Shown here one piece after another: positions 1 to 12,515 of a DNA stretch of 12,515 nt (within the stretch, counting starts at the first letter, position 1; the number at the start of each line of letters is the position of its first letter). Source of the DNA: a virus (taxonomy: Duplodnaviria; Heunggongvirae; Uroviricota; Caudoviricetes); IMG/VR virus record IMGVR_UViG_2531839620_000015. The stretch is one strand, 5' to 3'. The notes under the pieces are model-generated. The model was not told the origin of the DNA. It saw nothing but the letters and a program-made list of their open reading frames with translations, and ran no database searches. A program made the translations under genes and the position numbers.

Positions 1-1541
1 TGCTTCGCCTGACCGTGGCCGCGGATGACGGCAGTGAGCGGCTGGTCAGCACGGCCCGGACGACGGAAACCACATACCGCTTCACGCAACTGGCGCTGGG
101 GAACTACAGGCTGACAGTCCGGGCGGTAAATGCGTGGGGACAGCAGGGCGATCCGGCGTCGGTATCGTTCCGGATTGCCGCACCGGCAGCGCCGTCACAG
201 ATTGAGCTGACACCGGGCTATTTTCAGATAACAGCGGTCCCGCGTCTTGCGGTGTATGACCCGACGGTACAGTTTGAGTTCTGGTTTTCGGAAACGCGGA
301 TTACCGATATCAGGCAGGTTGAAACCACAGCCCGCTACCTTGGCACGGGGCTGTACTGGATAGCCGCCAGTATCAATATCAAACCGGGCCATGATTATTA
401 CTTTTATATCCGCAGTGTGAACACCGTTGGCAAATCGGCATTTGTGGAGGCTGTTGGCCAGCCGAGTGATGATGCATCCGGCTATCTGGATTTTTTCAAA
501 GGAGAGATAGGGAAAACCCATCTGGCTCAGGAGTTGTGGACTCAGATTGATAACGGTCAGCTTGCGCCTGACCTGGCGGAAATCAGAACGTCCATCACGG
601 ATGTCAGTAATGAAATCACGCAGACCGTCAATAAGAAACTGGAAGACCAGAGTGCAGCGATCCAGCAGATACAGAAGGTTCAGGTTGATACAAATAATAA
701 CCTGAACAGCATGTGGGCAGTGAAGCTGCAGCAGATGCAGGACGGACGCCTTTATATTGCGGGTATCGGTGCCGGTATTGAGAACACCTCTGACGGCATG
801 CAGAGTCAGGTGCTGCTGGCGGCAGACAGGATTGCGATGATTAATCCTGCGAATGGCAACACAAAGCCGATGTTTGTTGGTCAGGGCGATCAGATATTCA
901 TGAATGAAGTGTTCCTGAAATATCTGACGGCTCCCACCATTACCAGTGGCGGCAATCCTCCGGCATTTTCCCTGACATCAGACGGAAAGCTGACCGCGAA
1001 AAATGCGGATATCAGTGGCAGTGTGAATGCGAACTCCGGGACGCTCAACAACGTCACGGTAAATGAAAACTGTACGATTAAGGGCATGCTGGAGGCGACT
1101 CAGGTCAGAGGTGACTTCGTTAAAGCTGTATCCAAATCATTTCCGAAACAGGCTGGTACGTGGGGTAACACGGAAACACCAAACGGGACGGTTACAGTCA
1201 CCATCAGCGATGATCATAACTTTGACCGTCAAATCATTATTCCGCCCATTATCTTTAACGGAATAGCGTATAGCGATCCGGGAAGTGGTAATAACCCGGG
1301 AGGTACAAGATACACGGGTTATGGTTTTGAAGTTCGCAAAAACGGTGTATTAATCGCATCCAGAGAAACTAAAGGGGCCATTCCCGGTAGCTACAGTGCG
1401 GTTATTGATATGCCGAGTGGCAGGGGAAGCGTCACTCTGGAGTTTAAGGTTTTCCATAAAGGCAATCAGCGGGCAGGTAATATCACCGACTGTACGGTGA
1501 TTGTGACCAAAAAAGCGGCTTCCGGCATCAGTATCCGTTGA
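1..1541 (+). CDS. J: Host-specificity / central tail fibre protein J, C-terminal ~510 aa (5' end lies off-window; reading frame begins at nt 3)
   Basis: Open frame runs from the window edge to TGA at 1539-1541. It sits immediately upstream of lom-stf-tfa, the canonical lambda order J-lom-stf-tfa. Identity rests mainly on this synteny and on size, not on a remembered sequence match. Confidence 0.75.
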
Positions 1542-1563
1542 AATATTTATAACCCTAATAACG

Positions 1564-1590
1564 GGCGCCAGAAATGGCGCCTTTTTTATT
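1564..1590 (+). terminator. Rho-independent terminator after J
   Basis: Perfect 7-bp stem GGCGCCA (1564-1570) / TGGCGCC (1575-1581) with GAAA tetraloop, followed by TTTTTT (1582-1587). Confidence 0.7.
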
Positions 1591-1611
1591 GCAGAAAATC
1601 GGGAGGTAATT

Positions 1612-2211
1612 ATGCGTAAAGTTTGTGCAGCAATTTTGTCCGCAGCCATTTGTCTGGCCGTATCCGGTGTGCCTGCATGGGCGTCTGAGCATCAGTCCAC
1701 GCTGAGCGCAGGATATCTTCATGCCAGTACGGACGCTCCCGGCAGCGATGATCTGAACGGGATTAACGTGAAATACCGTTATGAGTTTACGGACACACTG
1801 GGGCTGATTACGTCCTTCAGTTATGCCAACGCCGAAGATGAGCAAAAAACGCATTACAGCGATACCCGCTGGCATGAGGATTACGTGCGTAACCGCTGGT
1901 TCAGCGTGATGGCAGGGCCGTCTGTGCGTGTGAATGAATGGTTCAGTGCGTATGCGATGGCGGGTGTGGCTTACAGCCGTGTGTCGACTTTTTCCGGGGA
2001 TTATTTCCGCGTAACTGACAACAAGAGGAAAACGCACGACGTGCTGACCGGAAGTGATGACGCTCGCTACAGCAACACATCTCTGGCGTGGGGGGCTGGC
2101 GTGCAGTTTAACCCGACCGAATCAGTGGCCGTTGATGTCGCTTATGAAGGCTCCGGCAGCGGTGACTGGCGCACTGACGGTTTCATCGTGGGTGTCGGTT
2201 ATAAATTTTGA
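1612..2211 (+). CDS. lom: Lom, outer-membrane beta-barrel protein of the Ail/Lom/PagC/OmpX family (lambda moron)
   Basis: 199 aa. SD GGGAGG at 1601-1606, 5 nt before ATG 1612. N-terminal signal peptide MRKVCAAILSAAICLAVSGVPAWA. C-terminus ...GSGSGDWRTDGFIVGVGYKF matches lambda Lom as I remember it. Position between J and stf as in lambda. Confidence 0.9.
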   Translation: MRKVCAAILSAAICLAVSGVPAWASEHQSTLSAGYLHASTDAPGSDDLNGINVKYRYEFTDTLGLITSFSYANAEDEQKTHYSDTRWHEDYVRNRWFSVMAGPSVRVNEWFSAYAMAGVAYSRVSTFSGDYFRVTDNKRKTHDVLTGSDDARYSNTSLAWGAGVQFNPTESVAVDVAYEGSGSGDWRTDGFIVGVGYKF

Positions 2212-2232
2212 TTAGTAACACAGCGTTATGAC

Positions 2233-2262
2233 AGCCCGCCGGTTCAGGCGGGCTTTTTTGTG
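2233..2262 (+). terminator. Rho-independent terminator after lom
   Basis: Stem AGCCCGCC (2233-2240) / GGCGGGCT (2247-2254), loop GGTTCA, followed by TTTTTT (2255-2260). Confidence 0.7.
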
Positions 2263-2270
2263 GAGTGGGT

Positions 2271-5189
2271 ATGGCAGCAGTACAAATATCAGGCGTGCTG
2301 AAAGATGGTGCGGGAAAACCAATACAGAACTGCACAATCCAGCTGAAAGCAAAACGTAACAGTACCACGGTGGTGGTGAACACGGTGGCCTCTGAAAATC
2401 CGGATGAAGCCGGGCGTTACAGCATGGACGTTGAGTACGGTCAGTACAGCGTCATTCTGTTGGTGGAGGGATTCCCGCCGTCACATGCCGGGACCATCAC
2501 CGTGTATGAAGATTCTCAACCCGGTACGCTGAATGATTTTCTTGGTGCCATGACTGAGGATGATGTCCGTCCGGAGGCACTGCGCCGTTTTGAGCTGATG
2601 GTGGAAGAGGTGGCGCGTAACGCGTCCGCGGTGGCACAGAACACGGCAGCCGCGAAGAAGTCAGCCAGCGATGCCAGCACATCAGCCCGTGAGGCGGCAA
2701 CCCATGCGACTGATGCTGCGGACTCAGCACGCGCAGCCAGCACGTCAGCCGGACAGGCCGCGTCGTCGGCTCAGTCAGCGTCTTCCAGCGCAGGAACGGC
2801 ATCAACAAAGGCTACTGAAGCATCAAAAAGTGCTGCCGCTGCAGAGTCCTCAAAAAGCGCGGCGGCTACCAGTGCCGGTGCGGCGAAAACGTCAGAAACG
2901 AATGCGGCAGTGTCACAACAATCAGCCGCCACTTCTGCATCCACCGCGACCACGAAAGCGTCAGAAGCTGCCTCCTCAGCCAGGGATGCGTCGGCTTCAA
3001 AAGAGGCGGCAAAATCATCAGAAACGAGCGCAGCCTCGAGCGCCAGTAGTGCAGCCTCCTCGGCAACGGCGGCAGGCAATTCCGCGAAGGCGGCCAAAAC
3101 GTCTGAGACAAACGCTAAGTCCTCTGAAACGGCAGCAGAACAGAGTGCCTCCGCAGCAGCAGGCTCAAAAACAGCGGCTGCATTATCTGCCAGTGCCGCG
3201 TCAACAAGTGCCGGGCAGGCCTCAGCCAGTGCCACCGCCGCCGGAAAATCGGCAGAAAGTGCCGCATCGTCTGCTTCAACAGCCACAACGAAGGCTGGCG
3301 AAGCCACTGAACAGGCCAGCGCAGCAGCGAGTTCTGCTTCCGCAGCGAAGACATCCGAAACGAACGCGAAAGCGTCGGAAACCAGCGCAGAATCCTCAAA
3401 AACGGCTGCCGCATCGTCAGCCAGTTCGGCGGCGTCATCGGCATCATCTGCGTCTGCTTCAAAAGATGAGGCGACCAGACAAGCGTCAGCAGCGAAGAGC
3501 AGCGCCACGACGGCATCCACGAAGGCGACAGAGGCAGCTGGTAGTGCGACGGCAGCAGCTCAGAGCAAAAGTACGGCGGAATCTGCAGCAACGCGCGCTG
3601 AGACAGCGGCAAAACGGGCAGAGGATATTGCATCCGCCGTGGCGCTTGAGGATGCGAGCACGACGAAAAAGGGGATAGTACAGCTCAGCAGTGCGACTAA
3701 CAGCACTTCCGAGTCACTGGCGGCAACGCCAAAAGCCGTTAAGGCCGCGTATGAGCTGGCTAACGGGAAATACACCGCACAGGATGCAACGACAGCACAG
3801 AAAGGGATAGTTCAGCTTAGCAACGCGACCAACAGCACATCTGAAATGCTGGCGGCAACGCCAAAGTCGGTAAAGGCAGCCTATGACCTTGCTAACGGGA
3901 AATATACTGCTCAGGACGCTACGACAGCACAAAAAGGAATTGTCCAGCTCAGTAGTGCAACCAACAGCGCATCTGAAACGCTTGCCGCGACACCGAAAGC
4001 AGTGAAAGCAGCTAATGATAATGCGAATGGTCGGGTACCTTCTGCCCGTAAGGTGAATGGTAAGGCGCTTTCATCGGATATAACACTGACGCCGAAAGAT
4101 ATTGGTACGCTTAACTCAACAACAATGTCATTCAGCGGTGGTGCTGGTTGGTTCAAATTAGCAACGGTAACCATGCCACAGGCGAGTTCTGTTGTTTCAA
4201 TTACGTTGATTGGTGGCGCGGGATTTAACGTGGGGTCACCTCAACAGGCAGGTATATCTGAACTTGTTTTGCGTGCAGGTAATGGTAATCCGAAGGGGAT
4301 TACTGGTGCTTTATGGCAGCGCACATCGACAGGGTTTACAAATTTTGCCTGGGTCAATACATCTGGTGATACTTACGATATTTACGTTGCAATCGGAAAT
4401 TATGCGACTGGTGTAAATATTCAATGGGATTATACCAGTAATGCCAGCGTGACGATTCATACGTCACCAGCATATTCTGCTAATAAGCCGGAAGGGTTAA
4501 CGGACGGTACAGTTTATTCACTCTATACGCCATCAGAGCAGTTTTATCCGCCTGGCGCACCAATCCCGTGGCCATCAGATACCGTTCCGTCTGGCTATGC
4601 CCTGATGCAGGGGCAGACTTTTGACAAATCTGCATACCCGAAACTTGCAGCCGCTTATCCGTCAGGCGTGATCCCTGATATGCGTGGCTGGACGATTAAG
4701 GGCAAACCTGCCAGTGGTCGGGCCGTATTGTCTCAGGAACAGGACGGCATTAAATCGCACACCCACAGCGCCAGCGCATCCAGTACGGATTTGGGGACGA
4801 AAACCACATCGTCGTTTGATTACGGCACTAAATCCACGAATAACACCGGGGCGCACACGCACAGTGTGAGCGGTACAGCCGCAAGTGCCGGAAACCATAC
4901 TCATAGTGTCACAGGCGCATCAGCAGTCAGCCAGTGGTCACAAAATGGGTCAGTACATAAGGTAGTGTCTGCGGCCAGTGTGAATACAAGTGCTGCAGGA
5001 GCGCACACTCATAGTGTCAGCGGCACAGCTGCATCTGCAGGTGCTCACGCACATACTGTCGGTATTGGTGCTCATACGCACTCTGTTGCGATTGGCTCAC
5101 ATGGACACACCATCACCGTTAACGCTGCGGGTAACGCGGAAAACACTGTCAAAAACATCGCATTTAACTACATTGTGAGGCTTGCATAA
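2271..5189 (+). CDS. stf: Side tail fibre protein Stf (lambda Stf-like, 972 aa from ATG 2271)
   Basis: SD GGAG at 2262-2265, 5 nt before ATG 2271 (the ORF track starts at GTG 2265). N-terminus [17 protein letters not shown]...[16 protein letters not shown] and C-terminus ...[31 protein letters not shown] match remembered lambda Stf. Contains a long Ala/Ser/Thr-rich low-complexity region (about 2640-3640), three tandem 44-aa repeats, and His-rich HTHS motifs near the C-terminus. Confidence 0.9.
3660..4013 (+). repeat. Three tandem 132-bp (44-aa) coding repeats inside stf (phage tail-fibre repeat type), third copy truncated
   Basis: Repeat units begin at 3669, 3801 and 3933 (exact 132-nt period). 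Units read KGIVQLS[SN]ATNS[TA]SE[SMT]LAATPK[AS]VKAAY[ED][15 protein letters not shown]. Copies differ mostly at synonymous positions. Confidence 0.85.
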
Positions 5190-5767
5190 TGGCATTCAGA
5201 ATGAGTGAACAACCACGGACCATAAAAATTTATAATCTGCTGACCGGAACTAATGAATTTATTGGTGAAGGTGACGCATATATTCCGCCTCATACAGGTC
5301 TGCCAGCAAACAGTACCGATATTGCACCGCCAGATATTCCGGCTGGCTTCGTGGCTGTTTTCAACAGTAATGAGGCATCGTGGCATCTCGTTGAAGATCA
5401 TCGGGGTAAAACGGTTTATGACGTGGCTTCCGGCGACGCGTTATTTATTTCTGAACTCGGTCCGTTACCGGAAAATGTTACCTGGTTGTCGCCGGATGGA
5501 GAGTGTCAGAAGTGGAACGGCACATCCTGGGCGAAAGATGCAGAAGCAGAAAAACTGTTTCGGGTACGGGAGGCAGAAGAAACAAAAAACAGCCTGATGC
5601 AGGTAGCCAGTGAGCATATTGCGCCACTTCAGGATGCCGTAGATTTGGATATTGCGACGGAGGAAGAGGCATCGTTACTGGCTGCATGGAAGACATATCG
5701 GGTATTGTTGAATCGTGTTGATACAACAGTAGCAGCGGATGTTGAGTGGCCAGTCGCCCCACAATAA
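5189..5767 (+). CDS. tfa: Tail fibre assembly protein Tfa (lambda Tfa-like)
   Basis: 192 aa. ATG 5189 overlaps the stf stop (TAATG). N-terminus [18 protein letters not shown]...[26 protein letters not shown] matches remembered lambda Tfa. Stop TAA at 5765-5767. Confidence 0.9.
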
Positions 5768-5773
5768 AAAGAA

Positions 5774-5803
5774 AAAGCCATCGACAGAAATATCGATGGC
5801 TTT
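5774..5803. terminator. Bidirectional hairpin terminator between convergent tfa (+) and the acetyltransferase gene (-)
   Basis: 11-bp perfect stem AAAGCCATCGA (5774-5784) / TCGATGGCTTT (5793-5803) with an 8-nt loop. On the minus strand it is followed by a T-rich tract (TTTTCTTTTTATTG). On the plus strand the U-tract is weak (TTTATGT). Confidence 0.6.
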
Positions 5804-5810
5804 ATGTACT

Positions 5811-6383
5811 CTATTTATACAATACAACACCACTCTTTTTAGTTATATATGTGCAGTTTGATGGTATATCTTTATTTATAAAAGACATTGCACCTATTTT
5901 TACATTATCCCCAATTTTACGTGATAATCCAATGATGCAACAATTAGCTCCGATATCAACGTTACTACCAATTTTTACTCTTGAACTAGGCATATCACCA
6001 TCTATCTGTCCAATGGTAGTATTCTGTCGTAATACCAGATTTTCACCCGCATCAACAGCAAAATGAACAACAATTCCAGCATGATGGGGAATTGTCAACC
6101 CTTTTCCAATATTTGCGCCCAATCCTATTTCACAACCAAACTTGTTAATTATTTTACTGTTTAACTTTTTGGCTGCTTTCTTATGTAATTTATTACCATT
6201 AATATACATTTCGTTAGCCAACCGCCACCAGAAAAGGAAATTCCGGTTACGCTGCTTTTTCTCTCTTAAAAGCCTCCAGATATCCATACGTTTCCGCCGA
6301 ATTACTTCATGTTTCCAGAAGTTTTTTAAATTAGTAGAGTTTCCAAATAAAACAAAGTGAATTGCCATTAAGTAAGATAGCAC
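5811..6383 (-). CDS. Hexapeptide-repeat O-acetyltransferase, serine acetyltransferase (CysE) / WcaB-like left-handed beta-helix family; likely start GTG 6383 (the ORF track extends to GTG 6416)
   Basis: The C-terminal half shows imperfect hexapeptide repeats (IGANIGKGLTI, HAGIVV, TTIGQ, VKIGSNVDIGANCCIIG, KIGDNVKIGAMSFI), preceded by a basic/aromatic N-terminal region as in the SAT family. A perfect SD AAGGAG lies 6 nt upstream of the in-frame GTG at 6383-6381. Neither GTG 6416 nor ATG 6368 has an SD. The gene is visibly AT-rich relative to its flanks. No signal peptide or transmembrane segment is apparent. Confidence 0.7.
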   Translation of the reverse strand: MLSYLMAIHFVLFGNSTNLKNFWKHEVIRRKRMDIWRLLREKKQRNRNFLFWWRLANEMYINGNKLHKKAAKKLNSKIINKFGCEIGLGANIGKGLTIPHHAGIVVHFAVDAGENLVLRQNTTIGQIDGDMPSSRVKIGSNVDIGANCCIIGLSRKIGDNVKIGAMSFINKDIPSNCTYITKKSGVVLYK

Positions 6384-6434
6384 GATAATCTCCTTAATTA
6401 TTATTTCAGACCACACATGTTATAAGGTTAAGAG

Positions 6435-6463
6435 ATTATAAAATCCTGTTATTTGTTATTCAA
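6435..6463 (-). promoter_or_regulatory. Candidate sigma70 promoter for the acetyltransferase gene
   Basis: Read on the minus strand: -35 TTGAAT (plus coordinates 6458-6463), 17-bp spacer, -10 TATAAT (plus coordinates 6435-6440), about 50 nt upstream of the GTG 6383 start. Confidence 0.4.
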
Positions 6464-6539
6464 AAACAATTTTCTGAGAAGGACATACAACAGCAAGTCG
6501 CCAGTCACCTTCATCAGGAAATTGGCGACATACGTTAAA

Positions 6540-7028
6540 TCAGAGCAGCCCCTTAACTGAGCTGGCCGCGCTATTAAGGGATGATGTCACCTTATCTTTG
6601 AAGCCGGACAGCATATCGCTGAACGATGAGGATTGCAGGCGCTCCCGCAAATCCTCATCACAGCGTTCAAGAGTCAGTGAAAATTCTATCTTTTTCGCCT
6701 TACCGTAGCGATCAAACTCGGAGCGGGTCGTATTCGTTCCGGTCAGGACATACATGCCGTAAATCTGCCCGACGCCATCAATCAAAGGCCAAGGACGTCC
6801 TGTATATGCCTGCGTGGTCAACAACGACAGCGACACTTCGCCACCAGTAATCTCAGGATAAAGAACACCAGAAAGAACGATGCGATCATCACCTGCACCG
6901 ATATACTGCCAGCTTGCTGAACGGTTAACGCGTTCATTTTTCACATGTCGCCAGCTTTTGTTTTGCTGTAACTGCTGATGCGGCAACGTGCGCAGCTCAA
7001 AAACAAACATGCCGTAGATCATCATCAT
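6540..7028 (-). CDS. P2 gpU-like tail protein; likely start at the third Met (7028), ORF track start 7034
   Basis: Motifs LYPEITGG, WPLIDG and KIEFSL and the MMMIYGMFVF N-terminus resemble the phage P2 GpU family as I remember it. It lies immediately downstream of the tape measure, as in P2 (T-U). SD GAGGAG (7042-7037) is 8 nt from ATG 7028. The tape-measure stop (7043-7041) overlaps this SD. Confidence 0.7.
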   Translation of the reverse strand: MMMIYGMFVFELRTLPHQQLQQNKSWRHVKNERVNRSASWQYIGAGDDRIVLSGVLYPEITGGEVSLSLLTTQAYTGRPWPLIDGVGQIYGMYVLTGTNTTRSEFDRYGKAKKIEFSLTLERCDEDLRERLQSSSFSDMLSGFKDKVTSSLNSAASSVKGLL

Positions 7029-7040
7029 GGCCATGACTCC

Positions 7041-9880
7041 TCAATCTTTATCGTAAAAACTGCCACGCCTGGCACGGGCGCGCCGTTCCATTTCTGCCCT
7101 GACCATTTCGCCGACCAGTTTCGCCAGTTCGCGGGGATTCTGCGTAACAACGTTATGCAGATGAACATGAATTTCACCGCCAAATCCGGAGGCAACAGGC
7201 TCCCGGTTACGGGAAGTTGCAGGAACTGATGCCACTGGCGATCGTATGGCCTCCACCACCGGGCGGGAGCTGGCCGCAACAACAGGGACCAGCGCCGGAG
7301 GCAGCGGAGCCGGGACCACGGGTGTGATATTAATTGCGGGGGCAGGCTTACTGACCTGCGCAATCTTCCGCTCCTGCCACTCCCCACGAACAGCAAGTGC
7401 GCGGGGCAGGTTCTTAAAGACAATATCGCCGGGGCCAATGCGTTTTTTTGTCTCATCAACCAGCTTACCTGTGTTATCAGCAATTTTGCTGAGTCTGCGT
7501 AGCGTGCCGGTATTGCTGTCTGTGAGAGGTTTGTTGTCTTTGGGTTTATCATCTCCGGTGCCATTGCTATTTCCCGCAGACTTCGGCGGATTGATTTTCG
7601 CAATGTCTCCCTGAAACAGAGCAACCTTGTCCTGAAGAATGGCCGCACGTTGTGCGTCTTCGATTTTCTTGCGCGCCCTTTCCGCTTCATCCGGAAGCAC
7701 ACCGAGTTTTTCAAGTATCCACGCCAGCGTATCCAGCAACATTTTTGCAGGCGTCAGAACAAGCTGTAACGCACCACCAAGAACGTTACCGAATACCTCG
7801 CCAGCACTGGTACATTTATCCAGCGTTTCCTTGCTGGACTCCATCGGTGACAGCAGCGATTTAAACCAGTTAAACACCTGGCTGAACCGCTTCCGATTAC
7901 GTCAAAAACAGGGCCAAACCGTTCAAAGGTGTCGCGCAACGGGGTCAGCCTTTCCATAATCCCGCTGAACACCCCGGCAAAGAAAGCCCTGATAGGATCC
8001 CAGTATTTCCAGATAAGAACGGCAGCTCCGGCAAGCGCAGCCACGATAAGACCAACCGGACTGAACAACGCCCCGATAACGCCTCCCAGTAAAGAAACGG
8101 AACCCGTCACCATTCCCCATAGCGCAGGTAACACCCTGACGACATTCATTGACCGGGTAAGAATGTCAAAACCAAGACGCAGGGTGGCCAGCTTCCCGTA
8201 AAGCACCCCAATAACCAGCGACAACGAGCCAATCGTTGCAGTCATTGCCAGCAACGCACCGCCTGCTATCAGTAGCTGGCGCGTCAGTACCGGATGGGCC
8301 TGCGCCAGCGAGGTGATTTTTTCAAGCACCCGCGTGAGCCACTGCGTGACAGAACGCAGCGGACCGTCAACCAGATCACTGATGCGAATACGAAGACCTT
8401 CCCATGCGCTGTCGAGATTTTTCAGGTCCCCATCAAGATTATCAGCCATTACTTTTGCGACGCGATCGGCCTCTCCCCTTGCCCCCTGCAATTCTCTGGT
8501 CAGTTTTTGCAGCTCTCCTGAACCAGCCGCCGCAACAAGCGTCTGCAAACCAACGAACGCCTCTTCTCCGGCGATGTCCTTGAAGAAGGAGACCTGGTCC
8601 ACCTGTCCGTATTTTTGTGTCGCCTTATAGAGATCAAGCAGCACATCCTCCATCGGGCGCATTTTGCCTCTGGCGTCAGCAACTGACACCCCCAGCTCTT
8701 TCAGTGCATCAGCCGCAGCTTTTGGCGGTGATGCAAGGCGGGACAGACTTGCGCGCATGGCCGTGCCAGCATCGCTTCCGCGAAGACCATTATTGGCAAG
8801 CATCCCGGCCATGGCCGCCGCTTCTTCAAGACTGATACCAAGTTTTGCGGCAACCGGACCGGTATACTTCATGGTTTCGCCCAGCGCGCGTAAATCAGTA
8901 TTGGTCCGGGTAAATGCTGCTGTCAGCGTATCGCCCACCCGGTCCATTTGATCGGCTGTCAGGTTGAACTGTGTGAGGATATTGGAGCCTATATCAGCCG
9001 TCTCGCCGAGTTCGACGCCACCTGCCAGCGCCATATTAAGAACACCGGGCAATGCGGCCTGAATGGCCTGCGGAGTAAAACCAGCCATTGCCAGAAAGCT
9101 CTGCCCACTGGCGGCATCACTCGCAGTAAACTGTGTTTCAGCAAGTTTTAACGCCTGCTCACGCAGCGCCTTAAACTGCGGGCTGTTTTTGTCGATTCGC
9201 GTCAGTGCCTGAACGCGGGACATCTCTTTGCCGAACCCGATCGCAGGCTGCAAAAAACGCCCGGCAGCATAGCCGCCCGCCGCTGCCGCACCAATTGCCA
9301 GCGCACCACCTGTTTTCAGTTTTCCCGCGGTTTCCTGCGCGTGCGAATACCGCTCACGCGCCTGCGTTACACGCGCAAGCGCCTGCCGTTCGCGTTCAAG
9401 CTGGTTGTTGTATTGTTCGGTGCGTCTGATGGCCTGCTGAATGGTGTTATCGCTGCCTGTCAGGGAAATGCCGTGGCGTTTCAGCTCTCCGCCAAGTTCC
9501 CTCATTTTCTGAATTTCCCGTGTGCGCGATTCATTCAGGCGTTCAAGCCGGGTGCTTAACTGCTGCATCAGCTTTTGTTGTTTTTCGCTGAGCACTGTAC
9601 CCGTGCGTTGTAACTGATTAAGGGCGTTAAGCTGGCGTCGTGCTTTCACGATGCCAGCATCCGCTTTACTGACAGCGTCGCGGGCGCGCTCAAATGATCG
9701 CGCCTGACGCTCGAGATTTTTGATCGCCCCCTGCGTTCGCTGGATGGAGTCACCAAACTGCCCCATCAGGCGGCGTGCGTTTTCGGCAGGTCGGGTCAGC
9801 CTGTCAACGGCGCTGAAAGCGACCCGGATATCAAGAGTCTTCATTGTCTGCATTCCCGCTGCGAAGTGCCGCCCGCTCAC
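7041..9880 (-). pseudogene. P2-like tail tape measure protein, split into two overlapping reading frames (7754-9880, 708 aa, and 7041-7877, 278 aa) by a frameshift
   Basis: The long ORF is helix-rich with a hydrophobic/Gly-rich segment typical of tape measures, and sits between E/E' and gpU as in P2. Its last ~40 codons (…ARCLTGLNRCCHRWSPARKRW…) look non-protein-like. The other frame opens at 7901 and reads plausibly (FNWFKSLLSPMESSKETLDK…) through to a stop that overlaps the gpU SD. The start is a GTG at 9880 and is uncertain; in-frame ATGs follow at 9853 and 9844. Confidence 0.7.
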
Positions 9881-10360
9881 GCCAGCTAACCACTTCGCCG
9901 GGCGTCATCATGAAGATTTCGGCGGGCGACCAGTTAAAAATAACGGCAATATCTGCCACAAAGTCTTCTATGTGCTCAAAGCACACAACCGTGATCAGGC
10001 TTCCGTCGCCTGTTCGTTCTTCCCGCCAGAGTCCGCACCGCTCAAAAAATTTACGGCAACCACACATAACTGAATAAAGTCACGGGATGCCATTTTTTTG
10101 ATCGTCACTTCATCCAGTCGCGGTGATGTCACGCGTGACAGCAGCGTAAACATGGATTCCGCTTTCAGATTCAGCACATCAGACAGCGACAAATCTCGCA
10201 GAGATCCAGCCTGCTCAATAGCCCCGGTGATCTCCACATACGTGATTTTTTCGCCGCCTCGCTCAATTGGTTGGGTAAGTTTTACACCACGCTCACTGGT
10301 TTCTTTCACAGTGTCAGTAACTACCGTGTTTTCGGTATCGATGTTTTTCGTCTCTTTCAT
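9831..10360 (-). CDS. Tail assembly chaperone E+E' fusion, made by programmed -1 ribosomal frameshift
   Basis: Minus-strand heptamer TTTTTTG (plus coordinates 10043-10049) lies in the E / E' overlap. The -1 frame continues open for about 70 codons (…KFFERCGLWREERTGDGSLITVVCFEHIEDF…) to TGA at 9833-9831, overlapping the tape-measure start, as in P2 E/E'-T. Confidence 0.6.
9995..10360 (-). CDS. Tail assembly chaperone, P2 gpE-like (121 aa)
   Basis: SD AAGGAG 7 nt before ATG 10360. Small acidic protein between the tube gene and the tape measure, with the slippery site in its 3' part, as for P2 E. Confidence 0.65.
   Translation of the reverse strand: MKETKNIDTENTVVTDTVKETSERGVKLTQPIERGGEKITYVEITGAIEQAGSLRDLSLSDVLNLKAESMFTLLSRVTSPRLDEVTIKKMASRDFIQLCVVAVNFLSGADSGGKNEQATEA
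10043..10049 (-). promoter_or_regulatory. Slippery heptamer TTTTTTG for the E/E' -1 frameshift
   Basis: Sequence GTA AAT TTT TTG AGC in the E frame; the T6G run is the classic chaperone slip site of P2-like and other long-tailed phages. Confidence 0.6.
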
Positions 10361-10414
10361 CAGGAAACTCCTTTCAGTCAGAGGCGACGCACTGCGCCGC
10401 CTGCATATTACTTA

Positions 10415-10927
10415 TCAGCCAAGCCCAAGCGCGGAACGGATGCGATCGGGCACAATGTCCTTGCCGTCCTTCCGGTAAATGAAGTTCAGCAGGTCAATCT
10501 CCCACAACGGGCGATCGTTAACACTCAGCTTGTAGTAGGTGTTTTTAATGGCGTAAGTGTGTGATGTGGCTTCGCCCTGTTTGGCTTCCCCCATATCAAT
10601 TTCCGTCACACGTCCGCGCATTTCGACTTCATACAGGTCGCTTTCATCATCGGTGTAGTATTCCCCCGCAAAACGCAGTAGCGTGCCGTCAATCGTGCCG
10701 CCATACTTCAGGAACAGCTCACGAACTGCGCCCCCCATGACAAAGCTCGCATCAAGCGCGGAGTCGTCCAGGCCGAGGTCAATACTTACCGCACCCATCA
10801 TGCCACCACCCCGGTAGCTGTCGGTTTTGCGCGTCAGTTTAGGCAGGGTGACGGACGTCACCTTACCCACTTCGTTTTCACCATCCACAAACAGCGTAAA
10901 AAAGCGAAGATGTTTTGGTACAGCCAT
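10415..10927 (-). CDS. Major tail tube protein (P2 FII-like, 170 aa)
   Basis: Motif VTLPKLTRKTDSYRGGGM and overall length match remembered P2 FII. ATG 10927 overlaps the sheath stop (TGATG). SD GGAGGT upstream. Confidence 0.85.
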   Translation of the reverse strand: MAVPKHLRFFTLFVDGENEVGKVTSVTLPKLTRKTDSYRGGGMMGAVSIDLGLDDSALDASFVMGGAVRELFLKYGGTIDGTLLRFAGEYYTDDESDLYEVEMRGRVTEIDMGEAKQGEATSHTYAIKNTYYKLSVNDRPLWEIDLLNFIYRKDGKDIVPDRIRSALGLG

Positions 10928-12111
10928 CAGGCACCTCCCAGCACCGCAAATGCGGGACCAAAGAATTCATCAGTAAACGACTGGTAAAGCTCCATGTCTT
11001 CCAGCGGAGGAACGGGCGTATATTTGTAGCGAATACGCACACGCCCCTGACGTAAATTCGTGGTGCTGTTATCCTCGATGTCATACCAGCACTCCGCGCC
11101 AATCAGTTTCCCGGCAGTAACCAGTGAATCCAGTTTTGCCCTGATGGCACTGATAACATCCTTCACGTTCGCAGGTGTCAGTGGACTGTCGATGGTTTCA
11201 AACTGCGCTTCCGCAATTGAATCAGCCAGCACCTGTGCGGTTCGGGTATACACCTCAAAGATGTAGGCGTTCGTTTCCGGTGTGCGGTTGCCCCAGAAGC
11301 GGAACCCGTTGCGACGAATAATGGTCGTGATTTCTTTGTTGTTGAGGCTGTTGGCATCACTGTCTTCGGCCTGCAACGACCAGAACACATGCCTCGACAT
11401 CCCAAGCACATTTTTAACCGGAACGTTGGACAGCGATTTGTGCCAGCCCTGCTCATGGTCAATGTACGCACGAAGGCCGCACGCATAAGCAGGCGCGGGG
11501 AACGTTTCGTTTTTGCCACTTTTCAGGTTGTAGGCGATGAAGTCAGGCCATAAGAGCATCACCTCACGTTCGTTGAATTTCTGGCGGTAGGTAATCGCCT
11601 CAGCCATCGTGTTACAACCATGACATGTGGCATACACAAACGCGCGCAGTTTACCCGCAATCACGCACAGGGATTTTGTTACCGCCTCCGTGTCCAGCTC
11701 CGGCGCGGCCAGAATACGCGGACGGTATCCGATGCTTTCATCCTGCTCTGCAACAAGCAGCGCATACATCCCCGTATAGCTGCCGTCAGATTCAGAACCA
11801 CCGATAACCAGTTGATCCTGCGTCTTACCGCCTTCTTCTTTGTGTTCAGCCACGCGAACGACGATCACTTTTGTGCTCACCTGGTCTGCGATAGCCTTAA
11901 GCGCACGATAAAGCGTCCCCGTAGTCCCGCATTTTCCCAGCACGTCATTGACGCGGGTCAGCAGTGTGGGCTTGTTCAGCGGGAACAGCTCCGCGTCCGC
12001 ATCATCTGCCGTTGCCACGATACCGATAACACTGGAATCAACATCATTAATCGCTGTTACCAGGTCGGTACTTTCCGTAACACGGGCACCATGAAAACGA
12101 GTTTCACTCAT
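10927..12111 (-). CDS. Contractile tail sheath protein (P2 FI-like, 394 aa)
   Basis: Motifs GFRFWGNRT, YTRTAQV and YTPVPPLE and the length match remembered P2 FI. SD AAGGGG 8 nt before ATG 12111. Confidence 0.9.
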   Translation of the reverse strand: MSETRFHGARVTESTDLVTAINDVDSSVIGIVATADDADAELFPLNKPTLLTRVNDVLGKCGTTGTLYRALKAIADQVSTKVIVVRVAEHKEEGGKTQDQLVIGGSESDGSYTGMYALLVAEQDESIGYRPRILAAPELDTEAVTKSLCVIAGKLRAFVYATCHGCNTMAEAITYRQKFNEREVMLLWPDFIAYNLKSGKNETFPAPAYACGLRAYIDHEQGWHKSLSNVPVKNVLGMSRHVFWSLQAEDSDANSLNNKEITTIIRRNGFRFWGNRTPETNAYIFEVYTRTAQVLADSIAEAQFETIDSPLTPANVKDVISAIRAKLDSLVTAGKLIGAECWYDIEDNSTTNLRQGRVRIRYKYTPVPPLEDMELYQSFTDEFFGPAFAVLGGA

Positions 12112-12268
12112 AGCTTCAGCCCCTTGTATCCGTTAAATGATTCGGCAACAATCATCACCCACCACGCGCGTAATCTCACCCCTGCGCCGTTCTCCCGCCA
12201 CGGCGACAACAAAAAGCAGTAACCCCCTCCGCACGCACATGCGACCATGCCGCACAGGGAGGGAACAG

Positions 12269-12321
12269 ATGACCGACACCACCATGCAATTGCTCAGTCA
12301 GGGCACAGACCACGTGAAAGT
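12269..12321 (+). other. 5' fragment (17 codons, MTDTTMQLLSQGTDHVK) of an ORF with a strong RBS, apparently cut by the IS insertion
   Basis: SD GGGAGGG 6 nt upstream of ATG 12269. The reading frame runs directly into the IS terminal sequence at 12322. Too short to assign a function. Confidence 0.3.
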
Positions 12322-12515
12322 TGAACCGCCCCGGAAATCCTGGAGACTAAACTCCCTGAGAAAGAGGTAAACAGGATGACTAAAAATACTCGTTTTTCCC
12401 CCGAAGTCCGTCAGCGGGCGATTCGTATGGTTCTGGAAAGTCAGGATGAATATGACTCACAGTGGGCGGCAATTTGTTCCATTGCCCCAAAGATTGGCTG
12501 TACGCCGGAGACTCT
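12322..12515 (+). mobile_element. IS3-family insertion sequence, left end (continues off-window)
   Basis: The terminal sequence begins TGAACCGCC… (IS3-family ends start with TG), about 54 bp before the orfA ATG. The OrfA N-terminus resembles IS629/IS1203-type elements from memory. Confidence 0.75.
12376..12515 (+). CDS. IS3-family transposase OrfA (helix-turn-helix N-terminal part), 3' end off-window
   Basis: Translation [46 protein letters not shown] closely resembles the OrfA of IS629-like elements as I remember it. SD GAGG upstream. Confidence 0.8.

Follow-up and report, generated by a model that had tools for sequence, protein, structure and literature searches.

P88-like phages are relatives of P2 that belong to the Peduoviridae genera Xuanwuvirus and Gemsvirus, and P88 itself is an inducible phage. 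The P2 late region reads H G fun(Z) FI FII E E' T U D ogr: fun(Z) lies on the opposite strand in the slot after G, while a single operon on the strand of H and G runs from FI to U and on to D. In contrast, the native P88-like order is H, G/tfa, an accessory slot, an operon U-T-E'-E-FII-FI on the opposite strand, and then D and ogr pointing off from FI. The paper describing P88 makes no statement about gene order or inversion. Annotations of PV15-279, A1, 90-3040, LSU61, and the phage genomes P88 and 500465-2 show this native order, with the same orientations. In the O157:H7/O55:H7 lineage of Escherichia coli, a P88-like prophage at the yecA/leuZ site is complete in LSU61 and decayed in Sakai, where it is known as Sp13 and has been described as a P2-like prophage without most morphogenetic genes. 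Lambda-like prophages with a J-lom-stf-tfa cassette occur in O157:H7 as well, for instance at the icd site of strain 4276. Recombination between siphovirus-type and myovirus-type prophages via tail-fiber and chaperone genes is a known kind of mosaicism in O157-type E. coli.

The window (the whole 12.5-kb stretch that we analyzed, 12,515 nucleotides) is one draft contig of assembly GCA_000335435.2, and it ends within repeats, in J on one side and in an insertion sequence (IS) on the other. Its host is an E. coli of, or near, the O157:H7/O55:H7 lineage. On the plus strand, J-lom-stf-tfa converges on a minus-strand series of acetyltransferase-U-T-E'-E-FII-FI. We conclude that, in the window, a crossover within tfa has very probably linked a lambda-like prophage, represented by its right end, to the right-hand part of a P88-like one, with positions 5768 to 7040 being native sequence and not a scar. 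Open reading frames (ORFs) and Pfam matches bore out the gene content and orientations of the original prediction, a plus-strand J-lom-stf-tfa facing a minus-strand sheath, tube, chaperone, tape measure, and gpU, and identified the following features:

15 to 1541, plus strand: 3' part of J, lambda-type host specificity (Pfam Ig_J, Ig_J_second, Phage_Tail_Tip, and Ig_GpJ_C).
1612 to 2211, plus strand: lom, an Ail/Lom outer-membrane protein (Pfam Ail_Lom, 1.8e-131, full length).
2271 to 5189, plus strand: stf, lambda-type side tail fiber (Pfam phage_tail_N, Phage_fiber_2, and Collar).
5189 to 5767, plus strand: tfa, hybrid tail-fiber assembly gene with a lambda-type 5' part and a P88-type 3' part (Pfam Caudo_TAP; three-way alignment).
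5282 to 5317: crossover interval of 36 bp, over which the parents do not differ (three-way alignment).
5774 to 5803: hairpin with a 13-bp stem and U/T tracts, in the gap where tfa and the acetyltransferase gene converge (terminator scan).
5811 to 6383, minus strand: hexapeptide acetyltransferase, CysE/WcaB/EpsC-like (weak Pfam Hexapep match; phrog_2154, 2.9e-87).
6540 to 7028, minus strand: gpU homologue, tail terminator/tail protein (Pfam Phage_P2_GpU, PF06995, 1.5e-38; 46% to P2 gpU, E value of 2e-44).
7041 to 9844, minus strand: tape-measure gene T, frameshifted (Pfam PhageMin_Tail; two overlapping ORFs in different frames).
9831 to 9986, minus strand: tail chaperone E' (annotated so in relatives).
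9995 to 10360, minus strand: tail chaperone E (annotated so in relatives).
10415 to 10927, minus strand: tail tube FII (Pfam Phage_tube, 1.3e-47).
10927 to 12111, minus strand: tail sheath FI (Pfam Phage_sheath_1, Gp18_domIII_N, and Phage_sheath_1C; 45% to P2 FI, E value of 1e-120).
12112 to 12268: FI-D intergenic region of 157 bp between divergent genes (same spacing as P88).
12269 to 12321, plus strand: first 17 codons of gene D, baseplate hub/late control D (collinear with the D 5' region of relatives).
12322 to 12515, plus strand: left end of IS629/IS1203, IS3 family (100% identical to the IS1203 annotated in PV15-279).

The left part of the window has the order of a lambda-type cassette, with J C-terminal domains, Ail/Lom, an Stf N terminus followed by fiber repeats, and Tfa on one strand, and positions 1 to 5754 are collinear with lambda-like prophages. 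Positions 2472 to 5317 match the O157:H7 lambda-like prophage L009 at 100% identity with no mismatches, and they are identical to the icd-site prophage of strain 4276, which has the same gene order and Pfam domains. Within stf, homology with the H genes of P88-like prophages begins only at 3678, at 92 to 95% identity. The window differs from lambda-like prophages in two ways: its J (inside which the contig begins) and its lom are only 88 to 94% identical to theirs, and P88-like DNA from 5318 onward replaces the native 3' part of tfa and the downstream chromosomal genes. A search of complete genomes with positions 1 to 3650 found no closer lambda-like parent for J-lom than 94.4% identity.

The right part of the window, from 5189 to 12321, is collinear with and 99.83% identical to the intact 40-kb P88-like prophage of LSU61. 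Homologues of FI, FII, E/E', T, and U follow each other in P2-type operon order on one strand; the E/E' region (9831 to 10360) matched Pfam Phage_P2_GpE (7.3e-13) and, weakly, Phage_TAC_7. Against P88 (Xuanwuvirus P88), 500465-2 (Gemsvirus), and Citrobacter phage phiSM, positions 6534 to 12319 had 91.5 to 96.8% DNA identity. P88 and 500465-2 share with the window the order and orientation of U-T-E'-E-FII-FI, the divergent D, the 157-bp spacer, and the position of U beside the variable slot (FI and D start at 17582 and 17740 in P88 and at 12111 and 12269 in the window). The likeness to P2 lies in the homology of FI, U, and D and in a G gene with a terminator behind it and then an accessory gene that converges on it; unlike in P2, FI to U is inverted, D is transcribed separately on the other strand beyond FI, and U is followed downstream by the acetyltransferase and then tfa. 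By comparison with these relatives, the convergent arrangement of tfa, acetyltransferase, and U at 5768 to 7040 reads as native P88-like architecture, a fiber-assembly gene followed by a variable slot and the opposite-strand operon, and not as a deletion scar. Further, the stretch from 5100 to 7600 that contains this junction was found at a coverage of at least 80% in 496 complete E. coli genomes.

The element had been described as lacking gene D, whereas the start of D is present 157 bp past FI, as in P88 and its relatives. This start is collinear with the uninterrupted D 5' region of two related contigs (L011 and L012) and with the complete D ORF of strain A1; the full-length D of relatives carries Pfam Phage_GPD and shares 49% identity with P2 gpD (E value of 9e-122). 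An exact P2-type TGT-N12-ACA dyad (the Ogr-type activator site) was absent from the FI-D spacer, and P2's own annotated pF site is likewise imperfect. At 12322, IS629/IS1203 interrupts D and the contig ends inside it, in agreement with the predicted IS truncation on the right. In contrast, the deletion proposed on the left, at 6417 to 6540, is contradicted by the collinearity with LSU61 and by the 496 genomes. The original prediction also held that a D homologue contiguous with the module would imply a misassembly at 6417 to 6540; the homologue was found, but it does not imply such an error, since hundreds of complete genomes are collinear with the window there.

The P88-like part is an inactive, decayed remnant. 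T carries a 1-bp frameshift, D is split by the IS, and everything upstream of tfa is now lambda-like. Compared with the intact T of LSU61, the inactivating 1-bp deletion lies at 7886/7887 and a 3-bp deletion at 9142; the frameshift is also present in L011 and L012. A complete virion module, with H, the baseplate genes V-W-J-I, and intact T and D, is thus not what the window holds, and as originally stated, no baseplate, fiber, or capsid genes of P2 type occur within it. The window differs from P88 and 500465-2 in this same frameshift, in the IS-cut D, and in the lambda-like DNA upstream of tfa. LSU61, PV15-279, and related strains have their own H and a macro-domain gene between H and tfa, whereas in the window a lambda-type stf directly joins tfa.

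The acetyltransferase stands where fun(Z) occupies the post-G slot of P2. P88 and 500465-2 carry an alternative (invertible) fiber cassette and a DNA invertase in the same slot, whereas the window and the 496 complete genomes carry the acetyltransferase. The gene is AT-rich (33 to 37% GC versus ∼50% in the flanks), and its NCBIfam matches to EpsC, CysE, and WcaB all fell under their cutoffs. We regard it as an accessory "moron" that is presumably dispensable for phage growth, with a putative function. Neither the acetyltransferase nor the macro-domain protein matched any PADLOC defense-system model, and the tfa-acetyltransferase pair also occurs in unrelated phages of 80 to 100 kb. The hairpin at 5774 to 5803 is likely a two-way terminator. 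The gap from the U stop codon measures 124 bp to the start of the longest acetyltransferase ORF (6416) and 156 bp to the annotated start (6383). The acetyltransferase promoter that had been placed here corresponds to TTGAAT-17-TATAAT at 6463 to 6435, which is a mere consensus match: four such matches were found versus 3.9 expected in shuffled sequence.

As originally proposed, a host-range cassette of lambda-like origin is fused to a decayed tail cassette of the P2 family, but the breakpoint lies inside tfa and not between gpU and tfa. In a three-way alignment, the four informative tfa sites at or before 5281 all carry the lambda-type base, and the 52 at or after 5318 all carry the P88-type base; thus, the crossover falls within 5282 to 5317. 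The parent sites switch cleanly inside shared homology, with no bases inserted or deleted. Directly after the mismatch-free stretch from 2472 to 5317, the window has 42 mismatches to L009 over 5318 to 5741, and from 5282 to 12321 it differs from the LSU61 P88-like prophage by only 4 substitutions, one 1-bp deletion, and one 3-bp deletion. The true lambda/P88 junction is, on this pattern of sites, best explained as a homologous crossover inside tfa, ∼450 bases upstream of the spot suspected earlier. The lambda-type contribution to tfa amounts to the first 31 to 43 codons, and the lambda side of the crossover is defined by only four informative sites. Two other contigs, L010 and L012, already have the P88-type base at 5281, so their switch lies at 5244 to 5280.

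The exact hybrid Tfa protein was found on only five contigs from five assemblies: the window, QOZZ01000554, AVRX01000069 (E. coli B109, GCA_000462585.2), and two Logan contigs, all with the same gene context. The junction is therefore reproducible in independent data, and the hybrid, although rare, is real. Among the strains that carry it, the lom and stf-5' alleles upstream vary, and L010 shows a full lambda-type run, L-K-I-sodC-J-lom-stf-tfa, upstream of the hybrid. All five carriers are short draft contigs. The hybrid was found in none of 5,426 complete E. coli genomes, among which the best coverage of the whole window was 69% and the best identity to the diagnostic 236 bp was 99.2%.

We infer that an exchange between tfa genes of ∼92% similarity, mediated by RecA or by a phage recombinase, may have made the hybrid, with a non-reciprocal outcome. 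Lambda-like DNA has replaced everything upstream of the P88-like tfa, including fiber gene H and the baseplate, lysis, capsid, replication, and integrase genes, and D of the P88-like remnant is split by IS629/IS1203 here and by IS30 in sister strains. Candidate topologies are a deletion between neighboring prophages, insertion of a circular phage genome with one side lost afterward, and a double crossover. A simple deletion or inversion between the two loci of PV15-279 was rejected: the parental tfa copies lie on the same strand 1.07 Mb apart, a deletion between them would be lethal, and direct repeats cannot invert. Since that deletion would be lethal, the lambda-like parent must have lain elsewhere or the event must have proceeded via extrachromosomal DNA. 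No tandem lambda-like prophage, which could have permitted a simple deletion, was found beside the P88-like prophage of LSU61, whose integrase abuts yecA. The predicted reciprocal Tfa, with a P88-type N terminus and an O157 lambda-type C terminus, was absent from a collection of 15 billion proteins; such a product may never have formed, the true 3' allele of the parent may differ, or a contig end may split the gene.

The hybrid might instead be a mobile, inducible lambda-like phage that gained the acetyltransferase and the P88-type 3' part of tfa and moves among O157-lineage strains, which we consider quite improbable; that such a functional phage spreads while carrying P88-like tail genes, along with the acetyltransferase, as right-end cargo is very improbable. 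The occurrence of the hybrid in several strains with differing upstream alleles, the lambda-type run in L010, and the known mobilization of defective O157 prophages would all suit a traveling phage. If it were one, its side-fiber system would be changed at the chaperone end, and the two crossover variants (5244 to 5280 and 5282 to 5317), together with the differences in lom and stf-5' alleles, would reflect continuing phage-phage exchange. However, ∼6.5 kb of dead contractile-tail genes, with a frameshifted T and an IS-split D, would be costly cargo, and no such phage was present among the 50,697 records of a phage collection. Moreover, B109, a sister strain of the one that yielded the window, carries IS30 in D at the same site, and with the same 2-bp CT duplication, as the yecA/leuZ-site prophage of PV15-279, which suggests that the remnant still lies at its original chromosomal site, leuZ.

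It is also highly unlikely that the contig is a chimera of separate lambda-like and P88-like prophages, produced by an assembler that switched between them in the shared stf/tfa repeat. Such an error might be suspected because the window is an entire short draft contig with repeats at its ends, the two parents do not differ where the switch occurs, and no complete genome has the hybrid. Nonetheless, the same junction came from five assemblies of different projects and pipelines, and the shared 36-bp stretch is far below read length. Each 31-mer is unique in a Logan contig, which is a de Bruijn contig with k = 31, and both of those found here cross the 36-bp stretch unbroken, with no branch at the junction; because this unbranched path spans the shared stretch, a wrong choice of branch is impossible. 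Further, over 5189 to 12321 B109 matches the window at 100% identity, but it differs upstream at 2200 to 2471, so the two sequences come from distinct strains and do not repeat a single faulty contig.

The remaining explanation, that an illegitimate deletion or rearrangement between gpU and tfa (at ∼6417 to 6540 or 5768 to 5810) removed both D and ogr and left two unrelated prophages joined tail to tail, takes its appeal from P2, in which D follows U directly on the same strand, and from the AT-rich, foreign-looking interval, but it is hardly credible given the collinearity with an intact prophage, the 496 complete genomes that carry the tfa/acetyltransferase/U junction, the likewise inverted U beside the post-G slot in P88 and 500465-2, and the start of D beyond FI.

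The crossover within tfa leaves a hybrid that is ordinary prophage mosaicism. Contigs of this sort provide no evidence for new hybrid tail systems; the window adds one precisely mapped recombination between a siphovirus-type and a myovirus-type prophage, with little import beyond annotation. For annotation, P2 gene order is an unsafe template across Peduoviridae: because P88-like phages have an inverted sheath-to-U operon and a separate D, a U gene without an adjoining D is no sign of decay in this group.

The window is a complete draft contig (AOEK01000082.1, 12,515 bp; assembly GCA_000335435.2) that ends on the left within the J gene and on the right within an IS element, both typical repeat-induced ends. 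The gene content and arrangement described in the original prediction were borne out by an ORF listing and Pfam scans of the window, as follows.

15 to 1541, plus strand: lambda-type J, C-terminal 508 codons
1612 to 2211, plus strand: lom
2271 to 5189, plus strand: stf, encoding a 972-aa Stf with a lambda-type N-terminal domain
5189 to 5767, plus strand: tfa
5811 to 6383, minus strand: hexapeptide acetyltransferase
6540 to 7028, minus strand: gpU (PF06995, 1.5e-38)
7041 to 9844, minus strand: tape measure T, in two frames
9831 to 10360, minus strand: E' and E
10415 to 10927, minus strand: tube FII
10927 to 12111, minus strand: sheath FI
12322 to 12515: end of IS1203 (IS629-type, IS3 family), 100% identity to an annotated copy

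A hairpin with a 13-bp stem (5774 to 5803) lies between the converging tfa and acetyltransferase genes. The promoter proposed for the acetyltransferase gene was a consensus match only (6463 to 6435), and such matches were no commoner than in shuffled sequence. Long spurious ORFs arise from the Ala/Ser-rich repeats of stf (2600 to 3700, ∼60% GC, strong AT skew), in alternative frames as well as on the complementary strand (e.g., 2671 to 3678, plus strand, and 2771 to 3520, minus strand), and the source assembly annotates one of them (2771 to 3508, minus strand) as a gene.

Lambda-like phages and P88-like phages (P2 relatives of the genera Xuanwuvirus and Gemsvirus) have the distal fibre region and the chaperone gene in common. 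Lambda-like prophages matched the window over positions 1 to 5754, and P88-like prophages matched it from 3678 only. Compared with the icd-site lambda-like prophage of O157:H7 strain 4276, the window had 0 mismatches in 2472 to 5317 and 42 in 5318 to 5741. Compared with the P88-like prophage of Escherichia coli LSU61, identity was ∼92% in 3678 to 5187 and 99.83% in 5189 to 12321, the differences in the latter interval being sites 5193, 5194, 5243, and 5281, four more substitutions, a 1-bp deletion, and a 3-bp deletion. A three-way alignment yielded 4 informative sites up to 5281, all of lambda type, and 52 from 5318, all of P88 type. Because the informative sites switch between these two positions, the crossover is placed within 36 bp (5282 to 5317) inside tfa, and the junction bears the signature of homologous exchange. 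The original prediction was borne out in part: modules of two prophages are truly joined, but it was wrong on gene D and on the breakpoint, which it put between gpU and tfa; the crossover lies ∼450 bp upstream of the interval it flagged.

The hybrid was absent from all 5,426 complete E. coli genomes, in which coverage of the whole window reached at most 69% and identity across the diagnostic 236 bp at most 99.2%. This absence would fit an assembly artefact, but such an artefact is very improbable, as exactly this hybrid Tfa is encoded by four further contigs, all from independent data sets: QOZZ01000554, which has L-K-I-sodC-J-lom-stf upstream; AVRX01000069, from E. coli B109; and two Logan contigs (SRR32030108 and SRR26196473). 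Across the junction, these contigs are 99.6 to 100% identical to the window. Moreover, Logan contigs are built from de Bruijn graphs with k=31, where each 31-mer is present once, and they cross the 36-bp shared stretch unbranched, so that the hybrid does not reflect a wrong choice of branch. A further implication of the unbranched path is that neither a parental nor a reciprocal second copy of tfa with these 31-mers exists in those genomes.

Of the five contigs that encode the hybrid Tfa, two (L010, the contig with L-K-I-sodC upstream, and L012) have the P88-type C at 5281, which moves the switch to 5244 to 5280 instead of 5282 to 5317. This difference could stem from two independent crossovers or from differing repair of one heteroduplex. 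A second mosaic boundary was found at 1524 to 2471: across lom and the initial 200 bp of stf the window diverges by ∼10% from its O157:H7 lambda-like counterpart, and from 2472 it is identical to it. Differences between B109 and the window were confined to 2200 to 2471 (37 mismatches).

The 5100 to 7600 junction was present at ≥80% coverage (megablast) in 496 of the 5,426 complete genomes, and it lay inside a full P2-family prophage in every case inspected (E. coli PV15-279, A1, 90-3040, and LSU61). In LSU61 this prophage is complete (∼40 kb), with its integrase adjoining yecA and its hok adjoining tRNA-Leu. The P88-like order is V W J I H G(tfa), followed on the opposite strand by the acetyltransferase, U, T, E', E, FII, and FI, with D, ogr, and hok on the tfa strand. 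In P2, a terminator and the accessory gene fun(Z), which converges on G, come after H and G; the strand of H and G then carries FI FII E E' T U D ogr. The P88-like lineage thus differs from P2 in that the FI-U block is inverted while D-ogr is unmoved. In both, the fibre-assembly gene is followed by an accessory gene that converges on it; at this position P88 has an alternative fibre cassette with a DNA invertase, and the window has the acetyltransferase. The deposited genomes of P88 (Xuanwuvirus), 500465-2 (Gemsvirus), and Citrobacter phage phiSM matched window positions 6534 to 12319 at 91.5 to 96.8%, and the annotations inspected (P88 and 500465-2) show the U-to-FI block inverted as in the window, with D directed away from FI. 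Both P88 and phiSM have been described as temperate and active. From these comparisons, the tfa/acetyltransferase/U junction is the native P88-like arrangement, and the architecture of the window is already documented in deposited phage genomes. P88-like prophages also carry variable cargo: between D and ogr lies either a YecA-family protein (PV15-279 and LSU61; 28452 to 29591 in the PV15-279 locus) or a DUF2971 protein (A1; 28416 to 29201 in the A1 locus), and the early region of the PV15-279 (3334 to 4612) and LSU61 prophages includes a ParM-type partition pair.

Strain A1 has an ORF of 369 codons that begins 157 bp past the FI start and is directed away from FI; it matches Pfam Phage_GPD and is 49% identical to P2 gpD along its full length (E value, 9e-122). 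Spacer and start codon are both conserved in the window (157 bp; start at 12269, preceded by GGGAGGG), where the ORF runs for its first 17 codons before IS629/IS1203 begins at 12322. Because this 5' end is retained beyond FI, gene D, originally predicted to be lacking, is present but interrupted, and not deleted beside U. The B109 and L012 contigs are without IS629/IS1203, and their D runs ∼90 codons to an IS30 end. This IS30 occupies an identical site, with a 2-bp CT duplication, in B109 (10370 to 10911 of that contig) and, as an IS30 remnant, in the leuZ-site prophage of O157:H7 PV15-279 (26471 to 27230). In PV15-279, an IS1203-associated deletion has also removed a segment reaching from T to D, including the 5' part of each gene. 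The 157-bp FI-D spacer (12112 to 12268) contained no exact P2-type TGT-N12-ACA dyad; the annotated pF activator site of P2 is itself imperfect.

Compared with its intact LSU61 counterpart, T is frameshifted by a 1-bp deletion at 7886/7887 and has lost 3 bp in frame at 9142; both deletions are also in B109, and the frameshift is also in L012. The P88-like part of the window cannot build a tail: besides the frameshift in T and the interruption of D, it retains neither baseplate genes nor H. The acetyltransferase region has 33 to 37% GC, compared with ∼50% in both flanks. Its product belongs to the phage-borne family phrog_2154 (2.9e-87) and is distantly CysE/EpsC/WcaB-like, with all NCBIfam scores under the cutoffs and no match among PADLOC models; from family and position, we would guess that it modifies surface polysaccharide. 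The tfa 3' end, hairpin, and acetyltransferase (5700 to 6382) occur together at 91 to 94% identity in two phages outside the P88 group, Escherichia phage JL22 (99.6 kb) and vB_EcoM-Ro157c2YLVW (80.7 kb), and the tfa 3' end/acetyltransferase pair seems to travel as a cassette. P88-like prophages of O157:H7 and O55:H7 have, between H and tfa, a gene for a 300-aa macro-domain protein (Pfam Macro, 1.7e-18; 7485 to 8387 in the LSU61 locus and 20087 to 20989 in the PV15-279 locus) with no PADLOC match. It is absent from strain A1 and from the window, which differs from LSU61 in this respect.

The IS30 site in D shared with PV15-279 suggests that the P88-like part may still be the leuZ-site copy. In PV15-279, 1.07 Mb separates the two parental tfa genes, which have the same orientation; a deletion between them was rejected because it would be lethal, and an inversion was rejected because direct repeats cannot invert. 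No lambda-like prophage was found beside the LSU61 P88-like prophage, complete genomes held no close relative of the lambda-like J-lom part (best, 94.4%), and the predicted reciprocal Tfa protein was not in the protein collection searched. Another lambda-like prophage may once have lain just upstream of the P88-like prophage, with the DNA between the two tfa genes then deleted. Alternatively, a circular phage genome could have integrated via a single crossover in tfa, with one side lost later; Sp13, the decayed Sakai form of the P88-like prophage, is known to excise and replicate, which bears on this route. A double crossover, with the second exchange within an IS, would be a third route. The hybrid is a product of ordinary prophage-prophage recombination through shared tail-fibre genes.
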